Shown: piece by piece, positions 1 through 43,602 of the stretch | How the letters are laid out: every line of letters starts with the position of its first letter | How positions within the stretch are numbered: the stretch's first letter is position 1 | IMG/VR virus record: IMGVR_UViG_3300031949_000079 | Coordinates: 1-43,602 of that record | DNA from: a virus | Lineage: Duplodnaviria; Caudoviricetes | Reading direction: 5' to 3' (one strand) | DNA length: 43,602 nucleotides | Made by a program: the position numbers and the translations under genes | The notes under the pieces: model-generated | What the model saw: the letters and a program-made list of their open reading frames with translations, nothing else | The model's database searches: none | What the model was told of the DNA's origin: nothing

Positions 1-141
1 TATCTCGGCGCCTCTATAGACAAGATTATTAATGCCGGATTACCGGCTGACGCACCAGCCAGTCAAGTCAAGGGTCAGGATTTCCTGATGGGTAAGATAC
101 TGGAGATGAAAATGACACCAGGCCACATGATATTCAGCCGG
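1..141. repeat. Terminal direct repeat, copy 1 (circular-assembly overlap)
   Basis: 1-141 matches 43462-43602 except T15 vs C43476 (TCT/TCC, synonymous Ser in the ORF crossing the join). Confidence 0.97.
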
Positions 142-462
142 GAGGCCAAGGAGGACAGACCTCAGGATTGCTGGGAGGTTATCGGAGTAGAGGGATTCAC
201 CTCACCAGTATCAGCACCAGCCATATCACAGGCTGCGGCAGGTGCATCACAAGCTGCTCCCAAGTCTGCCGTTCAGGAGGCACTGACCTTACTAGATGGC
301 AAGACCGAGCAACAGTGGAACCAGGCCATCTTCAACAGCCCAATCATCAAGGCTGACGCCAACCTAATTAACCTTATCCTACAGCGTCAGTTCCTATCAT
401 CACTGGAGACGGTCGGAACTGTGATCAAGGATGGTGATGGCATTTATCATGTTCATAGGTAG
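1..462 (+). CDS. 3' part of a ~244-aa hypothetical protein spanning the circular join (starts at 43189); replication/recombination module
   Basis: Frame is open from ATG 43189 through the overlap into ORF 88..462; lies upstream of the Cas4-like and Sak4-like genes. Confidence 0.8.
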   Translation, partial: YLGASIDKIINAGLPADAPASQVKGQDFLMGKILEMKMTPGHMIFSREAKEDRPQDCWEVIGVEGFTSPVSAPAISQAAAGASQAAPKSAVQEALTLLDGKTEQQWNQAIFNSPIIKADANLINLILQRQFLSSLETVGTVIKDGDGIYHVHR

Positions 463-476
463 GTTACAGGCAATAA

Positions 477-586
477 TGCCTTAAACCGAAACTAGGTAGT
501 ATCAGCAAGGTTAATGACCAGGAATGGTTGAGACAACCAGAATCTACCTAGTCCCAGAGTTAGTCTCTGGCTGATGAGGTGAGGCA
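477..586 (+). ncRNA. Type II hammerhead self-cleaving ribozyme; predicted cleavage after GUC at C553
   Basis: GAAA 488-491; stem III ACTAGGTAG 491-499 / CTACCTAGT 544-552; C553; stem I CCAGAG 554-559 / CTCTGG 565-570; CTGATGA 571-577; stem II GGT-GAGGCA 578-586 with TGCCTT-(AA)-ACC 477-487. Confidence 0.9.
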
Positions 587-588
587 AA

Positions 589-723
589 ATGATAGATTGC
601 AAAGAATGTCAAGGGTGCATAAACAAGGATATTTGTCCAGAGGGATACATTTGCCTGAGCTTGAAAGATATACGGGAAAAGTTGCCTAATGAAATAGATC
701 CAGCAGAGGCCTCATTTTACTAG
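589..723 (+). CDS. 44-aa Cys-rich microprotein (MIDCKECQGCINKDICPEGYIC...)
   Basis: Manual translation; GGTGAGG SD just upstream of ATG 589; TAG 721-723. Confidence 0.65.
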   Translation: MIDCKECQGCINKDICPEGYICLSLKDIREKLPNEIDPAEASFY

Positions 724-744
724 GAAAGGATTAACAACTGAATA

Positions 745-1089
745 GCTTGCTGGTGTCCAGGATGTAGCCCATCTTTGCCCTACACAATGACCACGACATG
801 ATAGGGAGTCAAAATGGCTTAGTACACGGAACACAGGATAATGATACTGTCCACGCTGACGTGGAGCGTTGCGGTAAGCCGACCATCGTGACTATCGCAG
901 GTGCATAGGAGGCGTACTGATAGGATGTATGGGCGTTGTGTGACTTGGCGTGAACCAATCTATCAGGGTATCAACGAGCCAGCAAGCCTGCCAGCCACCC
1001 AAACCATAAAGACAATAAGGAATGGGCAAGGGTGAAATCCCCTAACCGAGTAGCAGGGTAAAGTGGGCTACTGGCTGGCAGCAAGCCTG
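745..1089 (+). ncRNA. Candidate large structured non-coding RNA, family not recognised
   Basis: No credible ORF; many nested helices, e.g. GCTTGCTGG 745-753 / CCAGCAAGC 979-987, GGCTTA 816-821 / TAAGCC 875-880, TCCACG/CGTGGA 850-865, CTGATAG 917-923 / CTATCAG 960-966, CTGCCAGCCA 988-997 / TGGCTGGCAG 1072-1081. Confidence 0.6.
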
Positions 1090-1116
1090 AGCCGAACACG
1101 ATAAAGGAGGAGAAAA

Positions 1117-1671
1117 ATGACTAATGAACAGGCAATAAAGAAGAATGCCAAATTCAAGGAAGCCCTTGACCAAATAATAGGCTATGGTCAACATGCTATT
1201 GCTACTAAACAAGCTATCCTTAAAGCTATGGATGAGTTTGGCTACCATTTGCCAAAGCATTTAGAGGAGATAACAACCGAGACCGTAGAATCAATGAGCC
1301 ATTTTGGTGTCATAAGAGATTGGGTAATCAGGTTCAAGACTGGCGAGGAAATTGAGGTATCTGCCTCTATTATCAAGGTTATAGTGGAACATGAGTCTAA
1401 GGAACTTGGTTACCGTCTCCCTGCTGAAAGGAAGGAACTGAGAGAGGAAGTACACAGAATAATCCTACCACTATGTGCTGATTACAGGAAAAGAGAACGT
1501 GCTATCGCAAGACTTCTCGCCCTCATCAGACCTGTAGAGTTAGGGGAGGAGTCAAGAGGAAAAAGAACACAAGTATTTCATGATGCCTCAGAAGTAACAG
1601 GCATTTGGGACAGGGGAGAAGATAAACCCTCCCCCTGTAGAGTTAAAGGTGCTAACAAAAGAGACTCATAG
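1117..1671 (+). CDS. Hypothetical protein
   Basis: 184-aa ORF with strong AAGGAGG SD; no motif recognised. Confidence 0.7.
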   Translation: MTNEQAIKKNAKFKEALDQIIGYGQHAIATKQAILKAMDEFGYHLPKHLEEITTETVESMSHFGVIRDWVIRFKTGEEIEVSASIIKVIVEHESKELGYRLPAERKELREEVHRIILPLCADYRKRERAIARLLALIRPVELGEESRGKRTQVFHDASEVTGIWDRGEDKPSPCRVKGANKRDS

Positions 1672-1753
1672 TTATGGAATTACTTGTACTAATTGTGGCA
1701 CAAAACTTACATTAACAGGACTATGACCAGAGGCAGAGTGAAGGAGGTAATCT

Positions 1754-2659
1754 ATGTTAGAGTGGTTCATCTGTCCAGACAAGGAAATCATCCCAGTTCA
1801 AGACTGTCTAAAGTGTATTATCAAATGCAGGTATGGTCGGACCTGCTTAACAAGGCCAACTAGAGTCAAGATTGCTGAGGAGAGAGTATGGTCGGGCGAA
1901 CCCTCAACCACGCAACTCCTAAACGGCACCATGCTAGAGTTCCTCAAACTCACCAACTCCTATGCCATTGACCCAGACAGTCGGATGTTTGCACTACTTG
2001 GAACTAGACACCATGAGATGCTACATGAGATGGCTAAGACTCTAGGTCTGCCATCTGAGGTAGCCCTGACAGGTGATGATAAGGACATCTTTGACCTACT
2101 GGAACAAGATGAGGATGGCCAGTGGGTGCTGTTGGATTATAAGACATGGGGAAGTTACAGAGTAGCTCAAGCCATTGGACTAGTAGAGATTGGGAAGAAG
2201 CCTGACCCATCCGGTGCCGTCTACAAGACATCAGGAAAGTGGGGCAAGGCAGGCTCACCCAAGATGGTCAATGTGTTCCAAGCCATGCCACAACAGGTTG
2301 ACAATACCGAGGCTGAACTGCAACTCAACCGATACCGACTCCTGCTTAAGGAGAAGTATGGCATTGACGTTGTCCTTATGCGTATCCAGGCTACTGTCCG
2401 AGATGGTGGATTGGCTGTTGCCAATAGCCGTGGTATTGATAGGAATGGCATAATGATTGAGATTCAGATGCTACCAGATGAACGGGTCAAGGCATACTTT
2501 GATGCCAAGAGAACTGACCTGCTATTGGCTCTGGCTCAAGGAAGTTGGAGTATTCCATGCACCAACAAGGAAAGCTGGGATGGGGTTAGGTGTAGGGAGT
2601 ATTGTGATGTGTGGAACTTTTGCCCCAAGGGATTGCTGGAACATGGAGGTAACCAATGA
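1754..2659 (+). CDS. Cas4-like PD-(D/E)XK exonuclease, probable Fe-S cluster
   Basis: GTxxH, D..FDLL, LLDYKT and QLNRY motifs; N-terminal Cys residues plus C-terminal CxxYCxVxxFCP; AAGGAGG SD. Confidence 0.8.
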   Translation: MLEWFICPDKEIIPVQDCLKCIIKCRYGRTCLTRPTRVKIAEERVWSGEPSTTQLLNGTMLEFLKLTNSYAIDPDSRMFALLGTRHHEMLHEMAKTLGLPSEVALTGDDKDIFDLLEQDEDGQWVLLDYKTWGSYRVAQAIGLVEIGKKPDPSGAVYKTSGKWGKAGSPKMVNVFQAMPQQVDNTEAELQLNRYRLLLKEKYGIDVVLMRIQATVRDGGLAVANSRGIDRNGIMIEIQMLPDERVKAYFDAKRTDLLLALAQGSWSIPCTNKESWDGVRCREYCDVWNFCPKGLLEHGGNQ

Positions 2660-2829
2660 TATTCACTGATAGACGGAATGAATCATCAAAAATTATGGGA
2701 CAGGGTTATAAATCTAAGGAGGATAAGGATGGTGACATACTTATCTACCTAGATACAGGGTACACAATCAAATTAAATAATTATGAGGTTGGATTAATCA
2801 AAGAGCCAACTGAGGAGTCAACAGAATGA
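2656..2829 (+). CDS. 57-aa hypothetical protein
   Basis: Manual translation; ATGA overlaps with both neighbours; GGAGG SD. Confidence 0.65.
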   Translation: MIFTDRRNESSKIMGQGYKSKEDKDGDILIYLDTGYTIKLNNYEVGLIKEPTEESTE

Positions 2830-3656
2830 TACTCGGATTGTATGGTGAGGACAAAACTTGCAAGAGTACCCTGTCACTATCTGCACCTAAGCCAATGGTC
2901 TACATGCAATTTGACATTGGTGGGTTCCAACGTGCCTGTCGTAACTTACCTCATCTACCCATCAAGGACTGGTACAATCAAGGACTAATCAAGGTCGAGG
3001 ATTATGTCATGCCGTTCCAGATTGGTAGTTTGGACCCAGTCACCAGCATTATACGGCCGAGCAAAATCCTTGTTGGTGTTGAGGAGTTGTTCTATGTATT
3101 TGCAACCAACTTCCTCAAGCACCTGTATGATGGTACAGTCACCATCGTTGTGGACACCAGCACTCTTCTCTATGAGGTTACATGCCTTGGCTATCTCCAG
3201 GAGAAGCAGGAACTACAAATGCCATTACAGGCTAATGGTAAGGGCAGGGATGATAAGCCACTAAGGACTCAACTCCAGCAACAGGAATACCGTGAGCCAT
3301 ATATCAGGATGCGTGGATTCACATATCAAGCAAAGGCAGCCAAGAAGAACCTAATCCTTGTTCACCATGCTACTGATGAATATGGGTTGATGAGGCAAGG
3401 TGATGGCACCATGGGTCAGGGCAAGACAGGCAAGAGGGTGCTACATGGATGGGGCCAACTTGGTGATAGTGCAGACATCATAGGCAAGACCTACGTCAGG
3501 ATGGAGACTATACCTAACACCAACCCTCCACAGAGGAAGATTACACCGTGCTTCAAGATTGAGTTGGCCGAGGTCAAGGAGTTAGAAGGTGTTGAGATAC
3601 AGGAGCCAACATATGATAAGTTGGCTGGGATGATAAGGATGATAAGGGGTGAATAA
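2826..3656 (+). CDS. P-loop ATPase, Sak4/AAA_24-like recombination protein
   Basis: Walker A variant LYGEDKTCKST, Walker B TIVVDT, NLILVHH motif; next to an exonuclease. Confidence 0.7.
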   Translation: MILGLYGEDKTCKSTLSLSAPKPMVYMQFDIGGFQRACRNLPHLPIKDWYNQGLIKVEDYVMPFQIGSLDPVTSIIRPSKILVGVEELFYVFATNFLKHLYDGTVTIVVDTSTLLYEVTCLGYLQEKQELQMPLQANGKGRDDKPLRTQLQQQEYREPYIRMRGFTYQAKAAKKNLILVHHATDEYGLMRQGDGTMGQGKTGKRVLHGWGQLGDSADIIGKTYVRMETIPNTNPPQRKITPCFKIELAEVKELEGVEIQEPTYDKLAGMIRMIRGE

Positions 3657-3823
3657 TGAGAATTAAGAAAGGTACAAAGGTTCTAGTGGAGGCAGTAATA
3701 GAAGGTGATTGCTTTGACAACCTACCTAAGGAGGAATGTGCCTACCATATATCCACATCAAGAGGCCCAGCTATTGCTGAACCGGAACATATATTTGTAC
3801 TGGCAAGTGATAGAGATAAGTGA
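3656..3823 (+). CDS. 55-aa hypothetical protein
   Basis: Manual translation (MRIKKGTKVLVEAVIEG...); TAATG coupling to the ATPase gene. Confidence 0.6.
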   Translation: MRIKKGTKVLVEAVIEGDCFDNLPKEECAYHISTSRGPAIAEPEHIFVLASDRDK

Positions 3824-3861
3824 TGCCTTGGGTATGATTAGGATGATAAGGGGAGAGTGAT

Positions 3862-4194
3862 ATGGAAGAAAAGGTTTGTGTCATATGTGATCAAACATTT
3901 ACACCAAAATATAGGAGGGACCGAACATATTGTTCTAAGGAGTGTTATAAGAAGTCACCAAAAAGTATAGTGGGATACACTGAGTTCCGCCAACTAATCA
4001 TGAAAAGGGATAAGGATATGTGTATCATGTGTAGGGCCAAGGATGGTTTGGAACTACACCATATGAAATCTACCATAGATGGTGGCTCTGATATGCCATC
4101 CAACTTAATAACACTATGCCATGACTGCCATATAAAGCTACATAAAGAACTACGCTTGATGAGAAAGCGGTCCAAAAGTAATGACCATGTCTAG
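3862..4194 (+). CDS. HNH endonuclease with N-terminal zinc finger
   Basis: CxxC...YCSxxC, then RDxxxCxxC...HH...GG...NLxxLCxxCH. Confidence 0.88.
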   Translation: MEEKVCVICDQTFTPKYRRDRTYCSKECYKKSPKSIVGYTEFRQLIMKRDKDMCIMCRAKDGLELHHMKSTIDGGSDMPSNLITLCHDCHIKLHKELRLMRKRSKSNDHV

Positions 4195-4328
4195 CTATTC
4201 ACAAAGCACTATAAGCACTCTAGCATCAATTGTACGCATAGCTATGATAGCTAGAATAGAGCTAGATACTAACTTTGACACAGTTAGAAATTTTACACAG
4301 GCACTTAATGCCTGAGAAGGAGGTGTCT

Positions 4329-5073
4329 ATGATTTTCGTAGACATTTTTTGAGCCGTGCCAAATAGAGAACATCCTCCGGCAATCAGTGGATGTCCTACG
4401 CCATGGACTCAACCATCAAGGCTTCGCCGATTATATGTGGGTAGCTGTGGATGGACATCGCATCCAGGTTGAGCGGAAGCAGATAGACGAGATACTGAGT
4501 GGCATGGATAAGGTTGAGGAACAACTCAGCCATGAGTTAGCCAATGGTGTAGAGGAAACTATCCTACTATATGAGGGCGACTGTGAGCCTATAGCCACAC
4601 TCAAGATGGCCTGTCAAAGTTACAAGCTGGCAAGGAACGAGAAGGTTATGGTCCCACATAAACAATACAATGTAAGTTATACAGGATTACAGGCATGGTT
4701 CAGTCAGTTAGACAAGGCAGGGGTTACGGTGGTACATACGTGCCATTACGTTGGTACGGCTTTGGCTCTAGTCGCCCTATATCAGAACAGCCAGAAGCAG
4801 GAACACACCACACTCCGGAGGTACATCAAGGAGCATATCTATATCCAATCCAAGAATGAACATATCCTCAGCCTCATGGGAATCAAGGGTGGAGCACTTG
4901 GTGAGGCCAAAGCCAAGGCATTGATTGACAGATATGGCACATTTTGGTACACAATACAGCAACCGGCCGAGGAGTTGGCGGAGACTTTGGTGGGTGATGA
5001 GGATGGTAAGCAAAAGAGGCTTGGTATGGCAACGGTACTGAAACTTTTTAAGGCTATAGGGAGGAGTATATGA
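4329..5073 (+). CDS. ERCC4/XPF-family nuclease (resolvase-like); N-terminus joined through a +1 shift at T6 4345-4350
   Basis: ADY and VERK motifs, LYEG, C-terminal HhH-like IKG...LGEAKA. The SD-preceded ATG 4329 gives MIFVDIF then TGA; the +1 frame continues EPCQIEN into ORF 4387. Confidence 0.72.
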
Positions 5074-5210
5074 GTACTTTAAGTGAGTTGTCAAAGTTCT
5101 GGAAAAGGCAGTCCAAACTCTGGGCAGAACAGGAGCAGGCATGGAAGGAGTGTAAAGAGTATTGTAGGAAGGTAAAGGAGGACATACGGTTGAGACGGTG
5201 CCAGGAATGA
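5070..5210 (+). CDS. 46-aa hypothetical protein
   Basis: Manual translation; GGAGG SD; ATGA overlaps at both ends. Confidence 0.55.
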   Translation: MSTLSELSKFWKRQSKLWAEQEQAWKECKEYCRKVKEDIRLRRCQE

Positions 5211-5386
5211 TTTCCAAGAAGATGTGCTGGCACTCCGCTTTGACCAACCCAGAATGTATTGTATGTACCCATAGAGGGCAACACTTCTGTGATGGAACAT
5301 TGGAACTAAAGGAATGTTCAGACTGTGTTAATGTAAATAACTGGTATGAAAGGAAGGTACATAATGGAGATAATACCAGGACTTGA
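5207..5386 (+). CDS. Small Cys-rich protein
   Basis: Two CxxC motifs; start coupled to the upstream stop. Confidence 0.55.
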   Translation: MISKKMCWHSALTNPECIVCTHRGQHFCDGTLELKECSDCVNVNNWYERKVHNGDNTRT

Positions 5387-5681
5387 CACCATCAGAGGCT
5401 TGGTCGGTAACCCGCCGATGGAGATACCCGTCAACCGAGAAACGATGTCGGAGCAACAAGTTCTAATGCAGGACTGGAACGCCTGTTATATCGCTGTCCT
5501 GCCGTTCTGCTTCAAGTGTAAGCAACCTCTCACTTGGCATACTCCTCCCGAGGATGAGGTGCTGTTTGACTGCCTAGGTTGTGGTCGCAAGTGGGTCAAG
5601 GGAAGTGATTGGCTCAACAGTAAAAGACAGATAGCAGCCAACAAGGCAGCAGAGAGGATGAATGAACTTGACCAAGTCTAA
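5364..5681 (+). CDS. Zinc-ribbon protein
   Basis: CFKC...CLGC; AAGGAAGG upstream of ATG 5364. Confidence 0.65.
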   Translation: MEIIPGLDTIRGLVGNPPMEIPVNRETMSEQQVLMQDWNACYIAVLPFCFKCKQPLTWHTPPEDEVLFDCLGCGRKWVKGSDWLNSKRQIAANKAAERMNELDQV

Positions 5682-5795
5682 ACAAACACCACAACAATTA
5701 GCTGAGGAGCATGTAGATTGGTTCATACAAGTATTAAGGCCACTACTTATTAGTTTTTATGGTACATGGGCATAATCATGGTAGGAAGGAGAAAC

Positions 5796-5963
5796 ATGCC
5801 AGACCACATGGGCGTTGACACAGCCTACCACTGTGAGAAGTGTGGACATCATCACTGTACCAAATGTAAGGTGTGTCATAGGTGTGGTTGTCTAAGGTAT
5901 ATCAGGAGTAGAAAGGAGAGGAAAGATGCCAGACTCATGTCCATACATAATAAAGAATGTTGA
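5796..5963 (+). CDS. Small Cys/His-rich protein
   Basis: CEKC...CTKC..CHRC; AAGGAG SD. Confidence 0.55.
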   Translation: MPDHMGVDTAYHCEKCGHHHCTKCKVCHRCGCLRYIRSRKERKDARLMSIHNKEC

Positions 5964-6048
5964 GGGTCCATATACCTGCAAACTCAATGGTCAGGTTTGT
6001 AGCCTTGAGTTAGACCAGGAATGTGGATTGGTGGAAGATGATGCCTAA
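5926..6048 (+). CDS. 40-aa Cys-containing microprotein
   Basis: Manual translation MPDSCPY...C...C...C; AGGAGAGG upstream. Confidence 0.45.
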   Translation: MPDSCPYIIKNVEGPYTCKLNGQVCSLELDQECGLVEDDA

Positions 6049-6841
6049 GGTATTTGCACCTGAATATGGGCGAGATGAACATGGTTGGATTCTGTTCCCA
6101 GACGATGTTAAGTGGAGAAAGGAACTATTTCCTCCGGAGGTTATGAAGCATTTAGCCAAGATGCACCTATACCTAGAGTGGGAGTTAATAAAATATGTGT
6201 CTGAACCAGGTGATGTCCTACTTGACCCAATGAGTGGAACAGGCACAATTATGTTGGCAGCTACAATGGGCAGAACCGTAGTATGTGTGGAGATAGAGGA
6301 ACCATATCACAACATACAAAGATTGGTATTAGCACATCTCCAATCCCAATTTGACATGTCACCGGTTACACTACTACATGGTAATTGTAAGTTGCTATTA
6401 CCTATACCATGTAATCATATAATATTCTCACCCCCCTATGGCTCAGCATTCAAACCTGCCAATGAAATATCAGACTTTGTTAAGGACAAGTATAGAGTGG
6501 AGCAGGACGAGTATCAGACATATGCCATGACCACCGGTAATGTTGGACTCCATAGCACATTTATCTACAATATGGAGATGGAGAAGGTATATAATCTATG
6601 CTATAAGAGTCTGCCAAGGGGTGGTACCATGTCCACAGTGACTAAGGATATTACTGAAAACGGGAAGAGGATATTTATAACCAAGTGGACCACAAGAGTA
6701 TGTACCAAGGCAGGTTTTGTGCTACAGGACTGGTTCAAGCATAAGATAGGGGGTGGTCCATATCAGGACATGAGGCGTAGTCAAGGCTTAGAAACCATTG
6801 ACGATGAAGATATAATGATATTTATAAAGGGGGCAAAATGA
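6038..6841 (+). CDS. Amino-DNA methyltransferase (m4C or m6A)
   Basis: SAM-binding motif LLDPMSGTGT followed by catalytic FSPPY; start could be 6023, 6038 or 6041. Confidence 0.85.
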   Translation: MMPKVFAPEYGRDEHGWILFPDDVKWRKELFPPEVMKHLAKMHLYLEWELIKYVSEPGDVLLDPMSGTGTIMLAATMGRTVVCVEIEEPYHNIQRLVLAHLQSQFDMSPVTLLHGNCKLLLPIPCNHIIFSPPYGSAFKPANEISDFVKDKYRVEQDEYQTYAMTTGNVGLHSTFIYNMEMEKVYNLCYKSLPRGGTMSTVTKDITENGKRIFITKWTTRVCTKAGFVLQDWFKHKIGGGPYQDMRRSQGLETIDDEDIMIFIKGAK

Positions 6842-7203
6842 GAACTAGTTGGGACCAATACTTTCTGAACATAGCCAAAGATGTGGCATTGAGGTCAACC
6901 TGCCCCAGAGCATTAGTTGGAGCAGTAATTGTAATAGATAACCACATACTGTCCACCGGCTACAATGGTGCTGCACCAGGTGAGCCACACTGTACTGATG
7001 TAGGATGCTTGCTGGAGAACCACCACTGCCAAAGAGCCATACATGCCGAGACTAACGCTGTGGCACAAGCAGCTAAGTTTGGTACTGCTATTGATGGTGC
7101 CACCCTCTATTATTGGGATAGTCTTGGCAGAACAGCAGAGTCATGCACCAAATGCAGCCAAATAATGAAGGCTGCAGGAATAATGAGAATCGTAGGCAAG
7201 TAA
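6838..7203 (+). CDS. dCMP deaminase (ComEB-like)
   Basis: WDxYF...A.RSTC...VGAVIV...STGYNG...HAExNA...CxxC. Confidence 0.92.
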   Translation: MRTSWDQYFLNIAKDVALRSTCPRALVGAVIVIDNHILSTGYNGAAPGEPHCTDVGCLLENHHCQRAIHAETNAVAQAAKFGTAIDGATLYYWDSLGRTAESCTKCSQIMKAAGIMRIVGK

Positions 7204-8912
7204 TGTATTTCGCCCAAGACCCGGACCAACAGTTTTTCTACATGGGCTCCATTGAGCCACATGCCCGGCTGTACAACAACTGGTTCAAGGAGACCAGCCA
7301 TCCTATTGTGTCTCTGGATACCGAGACCATCTCACTTAAGGAACGGATAGCACTTGGTGTTGGTGTCGCATTCTCACCAGAGGTTGCTTTCTACTTCCCA
7401 CTGTTCCCAACACCATCTCCATCCACACCTTGGGACATATTGAGAGATGATAAGGTAATCAAGATATGGCATAACTCCTTGTTTGACTACTCAGCGGTGA
7501 GGGAGTTTGAGCTCAGCGCAGAGAATGTTAGGGATACCAGTGTCATGTCCCGACTTCTACTCTATAAGTTTAACAGCCTATTCAACCTTAGCCACATACA
7601 TCTGATGCCTGTACAGGAAGTCAAGGATGTAATGAAGATATACAAGGCCAGGACTATGTTGGACGTGCCACAGATAGAGGTGGCTAGGAAATGTATGCAG
7701 GACTGCATGGCTACTTTCAAACTCCATGATGAACTGCTGCCACGAACCAACCGTCCCTACTTTGATGTGGAGATGCAGACCATACCAATCATGGTCAAGA
7801 TGTCCTACCGTGGATTACTAATTGACCAAGAAGCCAGACTTTTGCATGAGGGGATACTGGAAGATGAGGTTGAGAATCTAAGGAAGGTATGTGAGGAGGC
7901 AGAGGGATTTAACCCGGGCTCACCTCAGCAGGTATCGTATATACTGGCCAAACGTGGTGCATATAATGTATTCTCACGACTGCCATTCACCAGGAATAAG
8001 TATGGCAAGAGAACATCTAGCCTATCCACTGACATCAGTGTATTGGAGCAAATGGAGGACCCACTGGCTGGGTTAGTCCTATCCTATCGCACCAAAGCCA
8101 AGCTGCTTGGGACATATATTCGACCTTGGGCTAATGAGGAGAGAGCCTATACGAGGTATCACCTTGATGCTGCTACTGGTAGGCCATCCTCACTGGATAG
8201 AAACATGCAGAACTTACCTGGTAAGGACAGTCCTACTAGAACCAACATCAGGGAGATAATACTACCTGACTCCGGTATCTGGACTGATACTGACTGGAGC
8301 CAGCTAGAACTCCGTATCCTGGCTTTCCTCTCCGGTGATAGGGAGATGGCCCACATATTTAGTCTGCCTACACTCCTACCGGATGGTACCAAGAATCCAG
8401 AGGCTGACATACATCAGAGGGTAGCTGACTTCCTGGGCATAGTGAGGAAGATAAGTAAGAATGTGGACTTTGCGATGGTGTATGGTGGCACCGATGAATG
8501 TCTCCGAGAGACAGCACATATCCAGTCCAGAGAGAGGTGTAGCCAGCTTAGACAAATGTGGTTTGGATTGTTCCCACAAGCTGGTGATTATATCCAAAGC
8601 AGACTGGAGGAGGTCAGGAGAGGAGCAACTTACTCAACTACCTGGTTTGGTCGTAACATGAAACTACCGGATGAGGAGGAGGACAGTCTTGATGGTAGGC
8701 AGAGGAAGTATATCAACTATGCCATACAGGGAACAGCGGCCGACATGATGAAGCGAGGATTGATTCTACTCAAGGACTTGGATTTGGCTCTACAGGTGCA
8801 CGATGAACTACTTATCGATTCCTATGTACCGGAAGATAGATTCAGGTGCCTTGAATCCATCGCCCCCTTCTACTCCCCTGTTAGTGTAAGGTACCTCAGC
8901 CGCTGGGAGTAG
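7203..8912 (+). CDS. polA: Family A DNA polymerase with 3'-5' exonuclease domain
   Basis: Exo motifs DTET and HNSLFD; TGRxSS..NMQNLP; motif A DWSQLELR; motif B RxxxKxxxFxxxYG; motif C VHDEL; start coupled (TAATG) to the deaminase. Confidence 0.95.
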   Translation: MYFAQDPDQQFFYMGSIEPHARLYNNWFKETSHPIVSLDTETISLKERIALGVGVAFSPEVAFYFPLFPTPSPSTPWDILRDDKVIKIWHNSLFDYSAVREFELSAENVRDTSVMSRLLLYKFNSLFNLSHIHLMPVQEVKDVMKIYKARTMLDVPQIEVARKCMQDCMATFKLHDELLPRTNRPYFDVEMQTIPIMVKMSYRGLLIDQEARLLHEGILEDEVENLRKVCEEAEGFNPGSPQQVSYILAKRGAYNVFSRLPFTRNKYGKRTSSLSTDISVLEQMEDPLAGLVLSYRTKAKLLGTYIRPWANEERAYTRYHLDAATGRPSSLDRNMQNLPGKDSPTRTNIREIILPDSGIWTDTDWSQLELRILAFLSGDREMAHIFSLPTLLPDGTKNPEADIHQRVADFLGIVRKISKNVDFAMVYGGTDECLRETAHIQSRERCSQLRQMWFGLFPQAGDYIQSRLEEVRRGATYSTTWFGRNMKLPDEEEDSLDGRQRKYINYAIQGTAADMMKRGLILLKDLDLALQVHDELLIDSYVPEDRFRCLESIAPFYSPVSVRYLSRWE

Positions 8913-8940
8913 TGCAATAGATGGTTGGAAACTTGACAAA

Positions 8941-10566
8941 TTATGCGGGCTGTATAACCGGCACCGATGATGTCCTCTTACGGTACTGTGCCCTACTCTC
9001 CAAAATCTTCTGAAAGTCATTAAGCCTCTGCTGACCCTCAACCCTGAACCTATCTGACAGGGTCATGTCATTATCCACAGCCGTCCGATACCTCTCAGCT
9101 TCGGCAAGGTATCTGTCTATCTCAGCTAACTCGGTCTCCGCCTCACTGACGTACCCATTGGCACTGGCTATCCTCTGTGTAGCCTCATTAACAAATGCTT
9201 GGGCTATGGCGGTCCAGGCAAGGGATTCTTCCACATATGACCCGTTATTGGCTATAAGGGCATCGGCGGCGGCAGCGGCTGCTCCTAGCGACTGGGCTAC
9301 AGCACCCATACTCTGGGCTATGGCAGAGATGGTACTTGCCTCAGCTTGGGCAAAGCTGACAAGGTTAGTACCAGTCAGCCCAGACATTTCAGCAATTCTG
9401 GTTGATATGTTAGCATACTCACCATATATCTCGGCAACACGGGCACCAAGATTAGCCTTGTTAATATAATCATCACCAGTACCCAACAACGCCTGCACAT
9501 CCAGAGCCGTCATATTGGCTCCAGAGGTAAGTATCCACTTCTTCTGCTCGGTATAGACAGCATTGACATCAGCCTCACTAATGGACAGGGCTGTTGCCAG
9601 TTGGGTAAGGACAGCATCAGCGTGCTTGGCGGCAACAATGGTGTCACTGTGCAGGGTTGTAGAGATGTCCTCCAGAACCAACTTTGCACTATAATTGGAG
9701 TTGGTCTCTAGGTAGGTTGCTACCTTAGCCAAAGCCGTTGCTGCCGCTACTTCTTGGGTTATGGCTGCACCTAGGGCTATACCAACCAGAGTATGCACCG
9801 CCGTGGTCAGTCCTAGTTCTGTCCTCATGCTGGCCAGGTCAGTTATAGCTTGATGCTCACACTGGATGGACTTCAGGTACATGGCATATCCAGCCGCACC
9901 AATACACACCACCTCGTCAAGGAAGGCAGGATAACTTGGAGCAGTGGCAGTTCCTGGAGCAGTATGTGGAGCCTCATAGTATATGACAACATGCTCCTTA
10001 TCAGTCAACTCGGCCTGGGACTTGCCAGTACCTTGACTTCCTATGTACATAAAGTTGTTCCAGATACTGAAGTTGACGAACTGTTGAGGCACCATACTTC
10101 CAGGATACTCCACACGGCTAACTCTGAGCAGGTTGGTGATGATAGCTGAAAGGTCAATACCAAGCAGGCTTTTGTAGTAGTCAAATATTAGGACGTTGGT
10201 AGCTGTGATACCACCTCCAGTTATGATGGTATATTTGCCATTGATGTAATCCATGGTGTAGTCAGTGTCCTTGGTATAGGTTATAGCACCAGTGGAGTTA
10301 GTTACCACTTCTGAGTCCACTCTGATGGGCTTATAGGCCAGGGCCTTCCACGTTCCAGCTACTGGAGCAACTGAGGACTCATCAGATACAGTATAATTGA
10401 TGGTATGTTCATAGGCAACCTCTAATGGATAATGTCGGCTTAGGTCATCCACTGCCCTCTGGACACACCGGTCCAGTTCGGTGGCTGACCATAGGCTGGA
10501 GGTACCCTTGAGGTCGAGCCAAAGTTCTGTATTATATTCTCCGGAATATCTGGTTGAGAATGTCAT
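8941..10566 (-). CDS. Virion protein, probable head-tail adaptor with long helical insert
   Basis: 541 aa at the end of the structural arm; adaptor-like N-terminus, Ala-rich helical C-terminal half. Confidence 0.5.
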   Translation of the reverse strand: MTFSTRYSGEYNTELWLDLKGTSSLWSATELDRCVQRAVDDLSRHYPLEVAYEHTINYTVSDESSVAPVAGTWKALAYKPIRVDSEVVTNSTGAITYTKDTDYTMDYINGKYTIITGGGITATNVLIFDYYKSLLGIDLSAIITNLLRVSRVEYPGSMVPQQFVNFSIWNNFMYIGSQGTGKSQAELTDKEHVVIYYEAPHTAPGTATAPSYPAFLDEVVCIGAAGYAMYLKSIQCEHQAITDLASMRTELGLTTAVHTLVGIALGAAITQEVAAATALAKVATYLETNSNYSAKLVLEDISTTLHSDTIVAAKHADAVLTQLATALSISEADVNAVYTEQKKWILTSGANMTALDVQALLGTGDDYINKANLGARVAEIYGEYANISTRIAEMSGLTGTNLVSFAQAEASTISAIAQSMGAVAQSLGAAAAAADALIANNGSYVEESLAWTAIAQAFVNEATQRIASANGYVSEAETELAEIDRYLAEAERYRTAVDNDMTLSDRFRVEGQQRLNDFQKILESRAQYRKRTSSVPVIQPA

Positions 10567-40793: not shown

Positions 40794-40822
40794 ATTATAA
40801 CATGTTTATTGCAAGTTGTCAA
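40794..40822 (-). promoter_or_regulatory. Consensus sigma70 promoter of the HNH-like pseudogene
   Basis: TTGACA-17-TATAAT with extended TG, then AGGAGG. Confidence 0.85.
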
Positions 40823-41931: not shown

Positions 41932-42689
41932 GGGGATTGACACCTAATGAACTAATTGCATGGACGCCACCAATCTTCAAGACTATTATAGGGGAGAACA
42001 TACTGGTGGACCAAGGGACCATGTGTATCTATGGCACCGAAGGAACATACAAATCAATGTTGGTTCTGGACCTCAGCTTCCGTATCTCTAAGGGTATGGA
42101 TTGGTTTGGCTATCATACCACCCTCAGTCCTGTGTACATGTTCCAATCCGAGATACCACAAACCTTCATGCGTGAAAGAATGCTGGGATACATGCAAGGC
42201 AACAAACTAGCCACAGACAATATCTGGTTCTGCTCCGAGTTATATGAGAAGATAGATAAAGGCTGGGGCTACACTGAGTTGGAGCGTGAGATAAATAGGA
42301 CATGCTCAAAAGTCCTATTCATAGACCCATTGTACAACTCGGTATCAGCCAAACTGGTTGACGATTATGAGATGGGCATATTTACGGATAGGATGAATAT
42401 GCTCCGTTCCAAATACAAACTCTCCATCATCCTGGTTGGACATGACCGTAAGCCAGAACATAGTGAAGGTGAATCATTCCATTATGGTACTGATGAACTG
42501 TTTGGCTCTGGTAGACTAAAGAAGTGGCTGGATACCATAATCTACGTTGAGTTAAAGAATGATGGTGACAGTACCATGGACCTCAAACTTACCTTTGAGA
42601 AGCATAGGCATACCAAATCAAAACTACCACCCATTGATGTAACCATATTCAGGTCTGACTTGACCTTTAGGAGAAAGGAGACACTATGA
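41910..42689 (+). CDS. RecA-superfamily helicase (AAA_25 / RepA-like)
   Basis: Walker A variant YGTEGTYKS, FQSE, Walker B LFIDPL, ILVGHDRK, GS, EKHR. Confidence 0.8.
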   Translation: MPEPARMRGLTPNELIAWTPPIFKTIIGENILVDQGTMCIYGTEGTYKSMLVLDLSFRISKGMDWFGYHTTLSPVYMFQSEIPQTFMRERMLGYMQGNKLATDNIWFCSELYEKIDKGWGYTELEREINRTCSKVLFIDPLYNSVSAKLVDDYEMGIFTDRMNMLRSKYKLSIILVGHDRKPEHSEGESFHYGTDELFGSGRLKKWLDTIIYVELKNDGDSTMDLKLTFEKHRHTKSKLPPIDVTIFRSDLTFRRKETL

Positions 42690-42844
42690 AGGAGCAAGGA
42701 ATCAAGGTTACCAAGCTGGAACTGAACCAAGACCAGTTCATTAAGTATATATTGGACAACACCACCGAGTCCAGCATATTCCGTATCTACAAAACCATCA
42801 ACTACATAGGAGTTGGTGTGGACATAATGCCCCTGCAGGAGTAG
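42686..42844 (+). CDS. 52-aa hypothetical protein
   Basis: Manual translation; AAGGAG SD; ATGA overlap. Confidence 0.6.
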   Translation: MKEQGIKVTKLELNQDQFIKYILDNTTESSIFRIYKTINYIGVGVDIMPLQE

Positions 42845-42864
42845 GTATTGCAATAGCTGGTGAC

Positions 42865-42894
42865 TTGACAGACTGAGTGCCTTTGTGCTATAAT
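42865..42894 (+). promoter_or_regulatory. Sigma70 promoter, probably leaderless, heading the recombination/replication operon
   Basis: TTGACA-18-TATAAT with extended TG; ATG 42900 begins 6 nt after the -10 and has no SD. Confidence 0.8.
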
Positions 42895-42899
42895 ACACT

Positions 42900-43046
42900 A
42901 TGGGCACCAGACAACGATATGTAATTAGGTTACAACCGGAACTTATCAAAGCCATCAAACACCAAATTATTGAGGAAGAAAGGAGGGCATGTGAGGTACT
43001 AGAGGAAGCTATACGAGACTATATCAAGAAGCGAGGAGGAGAATGA
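42900..43046 (+). CDS. 48-aa ribbon-helix-helix (CopG/Arc-like) regulator
   Basis: Manual translation MGTRQRYVIRLQPELIKAIKHQIIEEERRACEVLEEAIRDYIKKRGGE: beta strand plus two helices. Confidence 0.72.
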   Translation: MGTRQRYVIRLQPELIKAIKHQIIEEERRACEVLEEAIRDYIKKRGGE

Positions 43047-43189
43047 AAACAACCATCACAACCAAAACAGAGACACCAAACGAGGATACTGGGCTGACGA
43101 CAGTTACCATAGTATCCACAGAAGGTGATGAGGCAACAGCAGTAGTCACCATGCACAAACAGGTTATAGAAGAATTAGAGGAGGAATAA
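43043..43189 (+). CDS. 48-aa Thr/Glu-rich protein
   Basis: Manual translation; coupled at both ends. Confidence 0.55.
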   Translation: MKTTITTKTETPNEDTGLTTVTIVSTEGDEATAVVTMHKQVIEELEEE

Positions 43190-43602
43190 TGGCAAACGAG
43201 ACACCAGTACCACAGGAACAGGTATTAGCCCAATTACGGACAAGAGGGTTTGAGGACGGATTTCAACGGACACCACTCCGGCATTTCAAGGGTAAGCTGG
43301 ACAAGATTGGTGGCCACATGATTGATAGGTTCGCACCACCCAGACTTGAGGTAATCTATACATTCAGTGAAATGGAGGTCATTGACTCCACCGAACCTTA
43401 TCTGGCACCAATAGCTGACCTCACCATCCTGCACAGTTCACGGAAGAAGTCAGCGATGGGTTATCTCGGCGCCTCCATAGACAAGATTATTAATGCCGGA
43501 TTACCGGCTGACGCACCAGCCAGTCAAGTCAAGGGTCAGGATTTCCTGATGGGTAAGATACTGGAGATGAAAATGACACCAGGCCACATGATATTCAGCC
43601 GG
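43189..43602 (+). CDS. 5' part of the join-spanning ~244-aa protein (continues to 462)
   Basis: ATG 43189 with GAGGAGG SD; frame open to the window end and in frame with 88..462. Confidence 0.8.
   Translation, partial: MANETPVPQEQVLAQLRTRGFEDGFQRTPLRHFKGKLDKIGGHMIDRFAPPRLEVIYTFSEMEVIDSTEPYLAPIADLTILHSSRKKSAMGYLGASIDKIINAGLPADAPASQVKGQDFLMGKILEMKMTPGHMIFSR
43462..43602. repeat. Terminal direct repeat, copy 2
   Basis: 140/141 identical to 1-141. Confidence 0.97.

Follow-up and report, generated by a model that had tools for sequence, protein, structure and literature searches.

A type II hammerhead ribozyme predicted to cut a phage replication transcript at the border between an SSB-like gene and a modular non-coding RNA array

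Hammerhead ribozymes cleave RNA after an NUH triplet and leave products with a 2',3'-cyclic phosphate and a 5'-OH. Among them, the type II class carries the name Hammerhead_II in Rfam. In synthetic insulators of the RiboJ type, an engineered hammerhead leaves a 5'-OH, hairpin-capped mRNA ahead of the ribosome binding site. As described in the portion of the work of Perreault et al. (2011, PMC3088659) considered here, type II hammerheads flank genes in prophages and phages, and clustered prophage hammerheads cut polycistronic RNA both in vitro and in E. coli, which led to the proposal that long transcripts are cut into gene-length RNAs. The same portion places HHphage 13 nt before a helicase start codon, reports a pseudoknot between loop I and the 3' tail in the majority of type II ribozymes, though not in all, lists 4 of 18 consensus hammerheads as inactive and leaves the role of bacterial and phage hammerheads open. 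Another small phage ribozyme, theta, has its cut site immediately beside a structured non-coding RNA, at the 3' end of the latter, and has been proposed to substitute for a host processing enzyme (Kienbeck et al. 2024, PMC10879173, in the part drawn on here).

The stretch of DNA analysed in this study (the window, 43,602 nt) comprises a whole circular phage genome of about 43,461 bp, with a terminal overlap of 141 nt (1-141 and 43462-43602) that contains one synonymous difference, and encodes capsid protein GP7, terminase and DNA polymerase A. Judged by its sequence, the promoter at 42865-42894 (Table 1) likely starts a transcript that crosses the circular join and runs into the ribozyme; no terminator-like site was found on the plus strand within 42101-43602 or 1-9000. 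A search of sequencing runs for the stretch listed no RNA run. The beginning of a short frame (about 42898), whose product resembles a small ribbon-helix-helix repressor by eye, overlaps with this promoter, and a second perfect sigma-70 consensus promoter with an extended -10 element occurs on the minus strand (40794-40822).

The gene that ends at position 462 likely encodes an SSB, a reading based on the OB-fold-like barrel and the winged helix in the model of its product, P0020. The 62-row structure model reached a pLDDT of 86 and the single-sequence model a pLDDT of 35. The beta-barrel gave weak OB-fold matches to Stn1, PrgE, SSB and RPA, none of them at E<=0.001, and the C-terminal winged helix was recognised with Z 5-6 in structure comparison. 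The protein family comprises 63 matches with no Pfam assignment, and its predicted OB fold plus winged helix corresponds to an RPA32/Stn1-like layout. The family of the downstream PD-(D/E)XK nuclease counts 570 proteins and is spread over several hundred genomes.

Table 1. Features of the locus and their positions in the window
Feature	Positions	Strand	Basis or remark
Sigma-70-type promoter, perfect match, TTGACA-18-TATAAT, extended -10	42865-42894	+	sequence
SSB-like gene, 5' part; gene of 244 aa, wraps over the 141-nt terminal overlap	43189-43602	+	overlap; contig continues upstream of base 1
SSB-like gene, 3' part; stop TAG 460-462	1-462	+	predicted OB fold and C-terminal winged helix
Alternative "off" hairpin GGUU..AGGCA/UGCCU..AACC	462-487	+	fold; takes whole stem II 5' strand
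Stem II 5' strand	477-487	+	contains A483, the conserved A11.5
Stem II, 485-487/578-580 and distal part 477-482/581-586 (6 bp)	477-586	+	fold
Core GAAA (G12-A15.1)	488-491	+	sequence
Stem III, 491-499/544-552, 9 bp, 44-nt interior 500-543	491-552	+	corresponds to array module D4
GUC triplet	551-553	+	predicted cut after C553, by sequence and hammerhead consensus
Stem I, 554-559/565-570, 6 bp, loop UUAGU, U560 = U1.7	554-570	+	fold, covariation
Core CUGAUGA	571-577	+	sequence
Shine-Dalgarno GAGGUGA (576-582), overlaps core and stem II 3' strand (578-586)	576-586	+	sequence, energy
Putative Cys-rich ORF, 44 aa	589-723	+	
Array leader GGAUUAACAACUGAAUA	728-744	+	
Module D1 of the array, 223-nt interior within a 10-bp closing stem	745-987	+	
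Array module D2, 10-bp closing stem	988-1081	+	
Module D3 5' arm, 3' arm missing (truncated)	1085-1096	+	comparison with L130, L133, L136, L138
PD-(D/E)XK nuclease, conserved gene downstream of the variable region	1754-2659	+	

By sequence, the element at 477-586 is a complete type II hammerhead ribozyme. Its motifs follow the type II permutation (GAAA, NUH and CUGAnGA from 5' to 3') with all core bases present, here as GUC and CUGAUGA, and the positions that the initial annotation had assigned to the three core motifs were all confirmed, as were the three stems that it had described. The fourth pair of stem II is G-A in this copy. The hammerhead represents the minimum-energy fold of 463-591 (z -2.9; 2 of 200 shuffles equally good). 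A stem-checking descriptor applied to both strands for types I, II and III matched this ribozyme only in the whole window and yielded no type II match in 200 dinucleotide shuffles of the window, while a plain hammerhead pattern had no match in 100 shuffles. Rfam gave no hammerhead match on the window; this result is not counted against the assignment, because short-stem phage hammerheads used as controls (L052, L054, L093 and L288) were missed as well.

Four further intact members of the family were recovered by pattern scans (L160, L170, L181 and L288). The core GAAA/NUH/CUGAnGA is invariant in 5/5 homologues, and the stems covary. In the alignment of the five intact sequences, which include two related pairs (L181/L288 and window/L160) and in which one misaligned stem III strand of L288 was entered as gaps, 70 of 71 cells are paired and 7 of 15 pairs change on both sides; none of 500 shuffles scored as high, and slid controls were 15-42% paired. 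Out of 16 pattern matches in metagenomes, four passed the stem test (L167, L170, L176 and L178), L178 being the window's own record and L176 a repeat of L160, whereas L164-L166, L168, L169, L171-L175, L177 and L179 failed it; in another pattern scan, 4 of 13 matches were due to chance. The model R1, built from family members and used to scan for further copies, gave one match in the window, one convincing match in each of G001-G003 and none convincing in G004-G005. It also detected a sixth member (L235:4686-4754), in which the triplet is GUA and CUGAUGA is followed by an additional U; this copy is situated at a gene junction, and the array of the same phage has a dead, zipped copy at a distance of about 2 kb. 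Matches in L210/L256, L294 and L295 were dismissed as coding-sequence noise. Clustered copies were not seen in the window, where both the descriptor and R1 found a single hammerhead.

The pseudoknot between loop I and the 3' tail is absent in 5/5 family members, the best run being 2-3 bp, and U1.7 occurs together with A11.5 in all five. Among 29 unrelated phage hammerheads from 22 loci, A11.5 is present in 13/13 with U1.7 and in 4/16 with other bases. This co-occurrence fits the U1.7-A Hoogsteen contact described in the consulted part of PMC11875169, and from the co-occurrence only we infer such a contact for the family. Two tertiary subtypes can be distinguished among these 29 type II hammerheads (L009-L278), one with a 6-bp stem I and U1.7/A11.5 and the other with a longer stem I and a 3' pseudoknot. 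Candidate type II hammerheads are common in phage contigs; in a quarter of the collection, the stem test was passed by 23 of 124 pattern matches, duplicates and one doubtful match included. At L278:2496-2565 (-), outside the array family, a type II hammerhead follows straight after the stop codon of a gene that appears RadC/JAB-like by eye.

The non-coding RNA that the initial annotation had placed downstream of the ribozyme (728-1096) turned out to be part of a family-wide array that lay outside the view of that annotation. Across the family, an AU-rich leader is followed by two to six tandem hairpin modules, each with a closing stem of 9-13 bp of conserved sequence (classes D1-D4) and an interior of about 20-220 nt. 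The arrays mostly follow SSB-like genes, and other genes in more distant phages. By regular expression, 37 distinct array anchors were found, including the window's own record and one near-duplicate pair. Arrays were noted at window 728-1096, L003, L130-L136, L138, L142, L147, L154, L155, L160, L181, L184, L189, L195, L198, L200, L201, L204, L210, L212, L213, L216, L217, L225, L228, L231, L235, L237, L240, L241, L243-L246, L251, L252, L259 and L288. Duplicates and false positives (L183 and L202) are among the 38 array flags raised by the D1/D2 junction pattern. Interiors recur in distant phages and across module classes, one interior being shared by D1 of L210 and D4 of L212.

Whole-region minimum-energy folding did not reliably resolve the modules, and the module table obtained by stem search contains false modules from flanking coding sequence. 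Rfam searches of the window, 18 loci and three array stretches gave no relevant match, and variable interiors would defeat a fixed model. Likenesses of modules to Twister, Y RNA, tmRNA and a cobalamin riboswitch were dropped, having no Rfam support, and module interiors considered as guides had no match beyond chance in the phage's own genome. Three D1 interiors are tRNA-shaped by eye, with a D-arm and a T-arm round a long insert (L212:1985-2140 (-), L235:2345-2515 and L244:2345-2520 (-)), and a mini acceptor-plus-T-arm element was noticed by eye at about 3610-3660 of L003. ARAGORN reported 0 tRNA genes in 22 sources (the window and 21 loci), and a cut site next to a tRNA, as in theta systems, was accordingly not found there. 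No description of the array was found in the literature searched, in which subscription journals were thinly covered.

The ribozyme takes different positions relative to the array. It lies 5' of D1 in three phages (window, L160 and L288), at the 3' end of the array in L170 and L181, where its stem III is the last module and has D4-type arms, and at an unrelated gene junction in one phage (L235). In 4 of 6 family members stem III carries a module of 44-60 nt, and that of the window matches array module D4. The insert of about 44 nt in stem III was regarded as unusual by the annotation; it is present, but as a module of the family-wide array it is not peculiar to the window copy, and the two hairpins described within it are clear only when the insert is folded alone, being ambiguous in the full fold. 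In L138, L133, L225 and L240, a D4-type module keeps the 3' half of the ribozyme in an increasingly degraded state; GGGA or GGGG stands in place of GAAA, and the helix consequently continues across the cut site. The array module of L235 has no 3' half left, its helix being zipped throughout. Loss of GAAA and of stem I comes first in the decayed copies, and the retained half-cores suggest an order of decay from intact to zipped. In L225 (L279), GAGG of the dead ribozyme is found just 5' of ATG ATG and may now act as the Shine-Dalgarno sequence of that gene.

An intact ribozyme was present in 0 of 12 loci found by the SSB protein and in 0 of 95 loci found by the D1/D2 junction pattern, within the stretches examined; the intact homologues came from hammerhead-pattern searches, not from those two. 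Most arrays have no ribozyme or a dead remnant. On the SSB tree (23 rows, with 11 loci without a match and one short match left out, and the state of L132 missing as its contig ends early), the state of the ribozyme is not clustered and has a patchy distribution (4 changes; 165 of 500 shuffles as low), the window and L160 being nearest to each other. The varied placement and frequent absence point to a ribozyme that marks one border of the array or the other, changes place and frequently disappears, and it is best read as a mobile, dispensable element. In view of the four decayed and one zipped copies among relatives, of the many relatives that have no ribozyme at all (the majority) and of the off fold favoured in free RNA, the window copy could be regarded as a neutral or dying relic, formerly functional, now trapped in that fold and heading for loss like the zipped copies. 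We consider this very improbable, since, unlike the decayed copies, it has lost no core base, possesses U1.7 and A11.5 and keeps 24 of 24 named stem pairs.

When the window copy is folded, the closed stems are I and III and the open one is stem II. The initial annotation had pointed to a hairpin at 468-481 as a competitor for the 5' strand of stem II. A competitor exists, but it is longer, pairing 462-465 with 484-487 and 468-472 with 477-481, and the inner part (468-481) on its own would be compatible with the 3-bp core of stem II. The first nucleotide of the full hairpin is also the final base of the stop codon upstream (460-462). In free RNA, nearest-neighbour energies are -37.0 kcal/mol for the off state and -35.4 kcal/mol for the active state, a gap of 1.6 kcal/mol in a calculation that does not model tertiary contacts, and the probability of stem II is 0.00-0.05. 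Forcing 430-468 or 430-472 to stay unpaired, as a ribosome with its footprint on that stop codon would do, raised this probability to 0.84-0.88 in contexts ending at 600-620 and to only 0.14 with the context extended to 660. In these models, cutting is expected to be slow as long as the hairpin at 462-487 has not been opened by a ribosome at the SSB stop codon.

Taken further, this would make the locus of the window phage a translation-coupled switch, held off by the hairpin until a ribosome terminates on the SSB stop codon, so that processing of the array and the replication genes would depend on SSB translation. The 5' arm of the hairpin (462-472) indeed falls within 10 nt after the stop codon and its masking produces the shift in stem II described above; the toggle is clean, with AGGCA (468-472, 582-586) and GGU (462-464, 578-580) each occurring on both sides, and shuffling of 430-476 gave the off state in only 22 of 300 trials. 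However, 461-478 resembles 577-591, and GGUUA also opens array leaders in relatives, because of which the toggle may stem from a duplication or a leader motif; moreover, the energy gap is small before tertiary contacts are counted, and cutting is irreversible. The distance of 25 nt from stop codon to GAAA in the window, against 2-11 nt, in or beside stem II, in 22 of 29 unrelated phage hammerheads, is a further point for the switch, yet 19 of the same 29 also have a stem II probability of <=0.05 in context, which makes the off state a common one. Among the four homologues, a similar hairpin is found in L160 only, where it is 237 nt from the stop of any long frame and where the ribozyme is modelled as off regardless, via pairing of the 3' tail with the core, and there is no such hairpin in L170, L181 and L288. 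Given the hairpin placement in L160, its absence from the three other homologues and the off state of the 19 unrelated ribozymes, we treat termination coupling as an idea for the window phage, not a family trait, and judge it rather unlikely. In the literature searched, with thin coverage of subscription journals, no termination-triggered natural hammerhead was found.

Two further observations concern the surroundings of the core. A 3' tail complementary to the catalytic core (a core clamp) is present at L160:2521-2534 and in the second cores of L054 and L095. In the window, a two-codon frame, ATG CCT TAA, coincides exactly with the 5' strand of stem II (476-484), with a weak SD-like match upstream (-7.6 kcal/mol), and is absent in L160.

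Another model for the locus, put forward in the initial annotation, holds that stem II buries the Shine-Dalgarno sequence of the ORF at 589, so that cutting or the competing hairpin would gate translation of the microprotein and of the genes downstream. The overlap on which it was built stands in a modified form: the better match is GAGGUGA at 576-582 (-11.0 kcal/mol), compared with -7.4 kcal/mol for 578-584, and hence the overlap includes the catalytic core as well as the 3' strand of stem II. Points for burial are the match of -11.0 to -11.5 kcal/mol located 6 nt before ATG 589, the distal extension of 6 bp on stem II, and the mean unpaired share of the Shine-Dalgarno sequence at 37 C, which is 0.24 for the active fold and 0.36-0.63 for the off fold; L160 offers by eye a weaker possibility of 3-4 bp. 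The site is, however, free in the uncut off fold and in the released product and masked only in the short-lived active fold, downstream genes carry their own Shine-Dalgarno sequences, and GAGG is inherent in every CUGAUGA-GG junction. Nor is the arrangement conserved: the Shine-Dalgarno sequence lies in stem II in 1/5 family members, and a start codon lies no more than 10 nt from stem II in 1/5 members (the window) and in 1/29 unrelated hammerheads. No homologue of ORF 589 was found, only the window's own record having matched among the fetched loci, and the best Atlas value of 0.89 is a lead only. Translational gating by a buried ribosome site is therefore improbable in our assessment. In sequence comparisons, the overlap of the ribozyme with the ribosome site of the next gene is peculiar to the window phage, and the reading that we prefer is that a small ORF, inserted here, has locally reused GAGG of the core.

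We favour, as the probable explanation, that the transcript of the replication module is cut after C553 by a type II hammerhead, where the predicted SSB gene borders on the array. The type II assignment and the idea of operon-RNA splitting, both already present in the initial annotation, are supported by the stem covariation and by the prophage precedent in the part of PMC3088659 considered. According to this explanation, a transcript from the promoter at 42865-42894 would run across the circular join through the SSB gene into the ribozyme, and the cut after C553 would produce an SSB message that ends in the stem III module and bears a 2',3'-cyclic phosphate; the RNA downstream would start with a 5'-OH and have the stem I hairpin as a cap. 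Array and mRNA would in this way obtain defined ends. In the window phage, the leader hairpin at 462-487 may delay cutting until a ribosome at the SSB stop opens it. A broader proposal is that the SSB operon of these phages expresses arrays of swappable small structured RNAs, with fixed closing stems and exchangeable interiors that are partly tRNA-shaped, which would be directed against the host as decoys or regulators, one of the modules serving as stem III of an array-excising hammerhead whose cutting in the window phage is triggered by the ribosome finishing the SSB gene; we put this forward as a speculative combination that is doubtful as a whole.

Taken by itself, the hammerhead is nothing unusual: its class is familiar and so is the sort of site it occupies, type II ribozymes between phage genes having been known since 2011. 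The novelty would mostly reside in the array, a non-coding RNA system that is widespread in phages and for which neither an Rfam match nor a description in the literature searched was found, and relatives of the ribozyme may be contained in the supplementary alignments of PMC3088659. The phages provide a natural series at one locus, from a bare stem III through a cargo-bearing stem III and a dead half-core to a fully zipped helix, which allows the notion of a processing site to be put to a direct test and reveals what can take the place of the ribozyme. Should the ribosome-triggered reading be true, translation termination would be what turns on this natural ribozyme.

Compared with known systems, the locus would share with RiboJ-type insulators a 5'-OH, hairpin-capped product, whereas RiboJ has neither a competing leader nor an array. 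Like the minimal fast hammerheads of sTRSV and Schistosoma (O'Rourke et al., in the part of PMC11875169 consulted), the window family has a U that is left unpaired, seven bases beyond the cut site, and an A immediately past a 4-position stem II, but this A occupies the open 5' strand or a bulge rather than a GNRA loop, and the contact is suggested by co-occurrence. With theta ribozymes, as far as the relevant part of PMC10879173 describes them, it has in common that a small phage ribozyme is positioned next to a structured non-coding RNA; there, the fold is HDV-like and the RNAs are true tRNAs, in contrast to the hammerhead and the non-tRNA stem modules of the window family. Closest are the type II ribozymes in the portion of PMC3088659 considered, with which the window copy shares the topology, the core, the short core of stem II and the intergenic place in a phage operon. 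In contrast to those, the window family has no pseudoknot and has U1.7/A11.5, the ribozyme is a single copy and not a cluster, its stem III bears an array-type module in four of six members, it stands beside a non-coding array, and in the window the upstream stop codon is 25 nt away, not in stem II.
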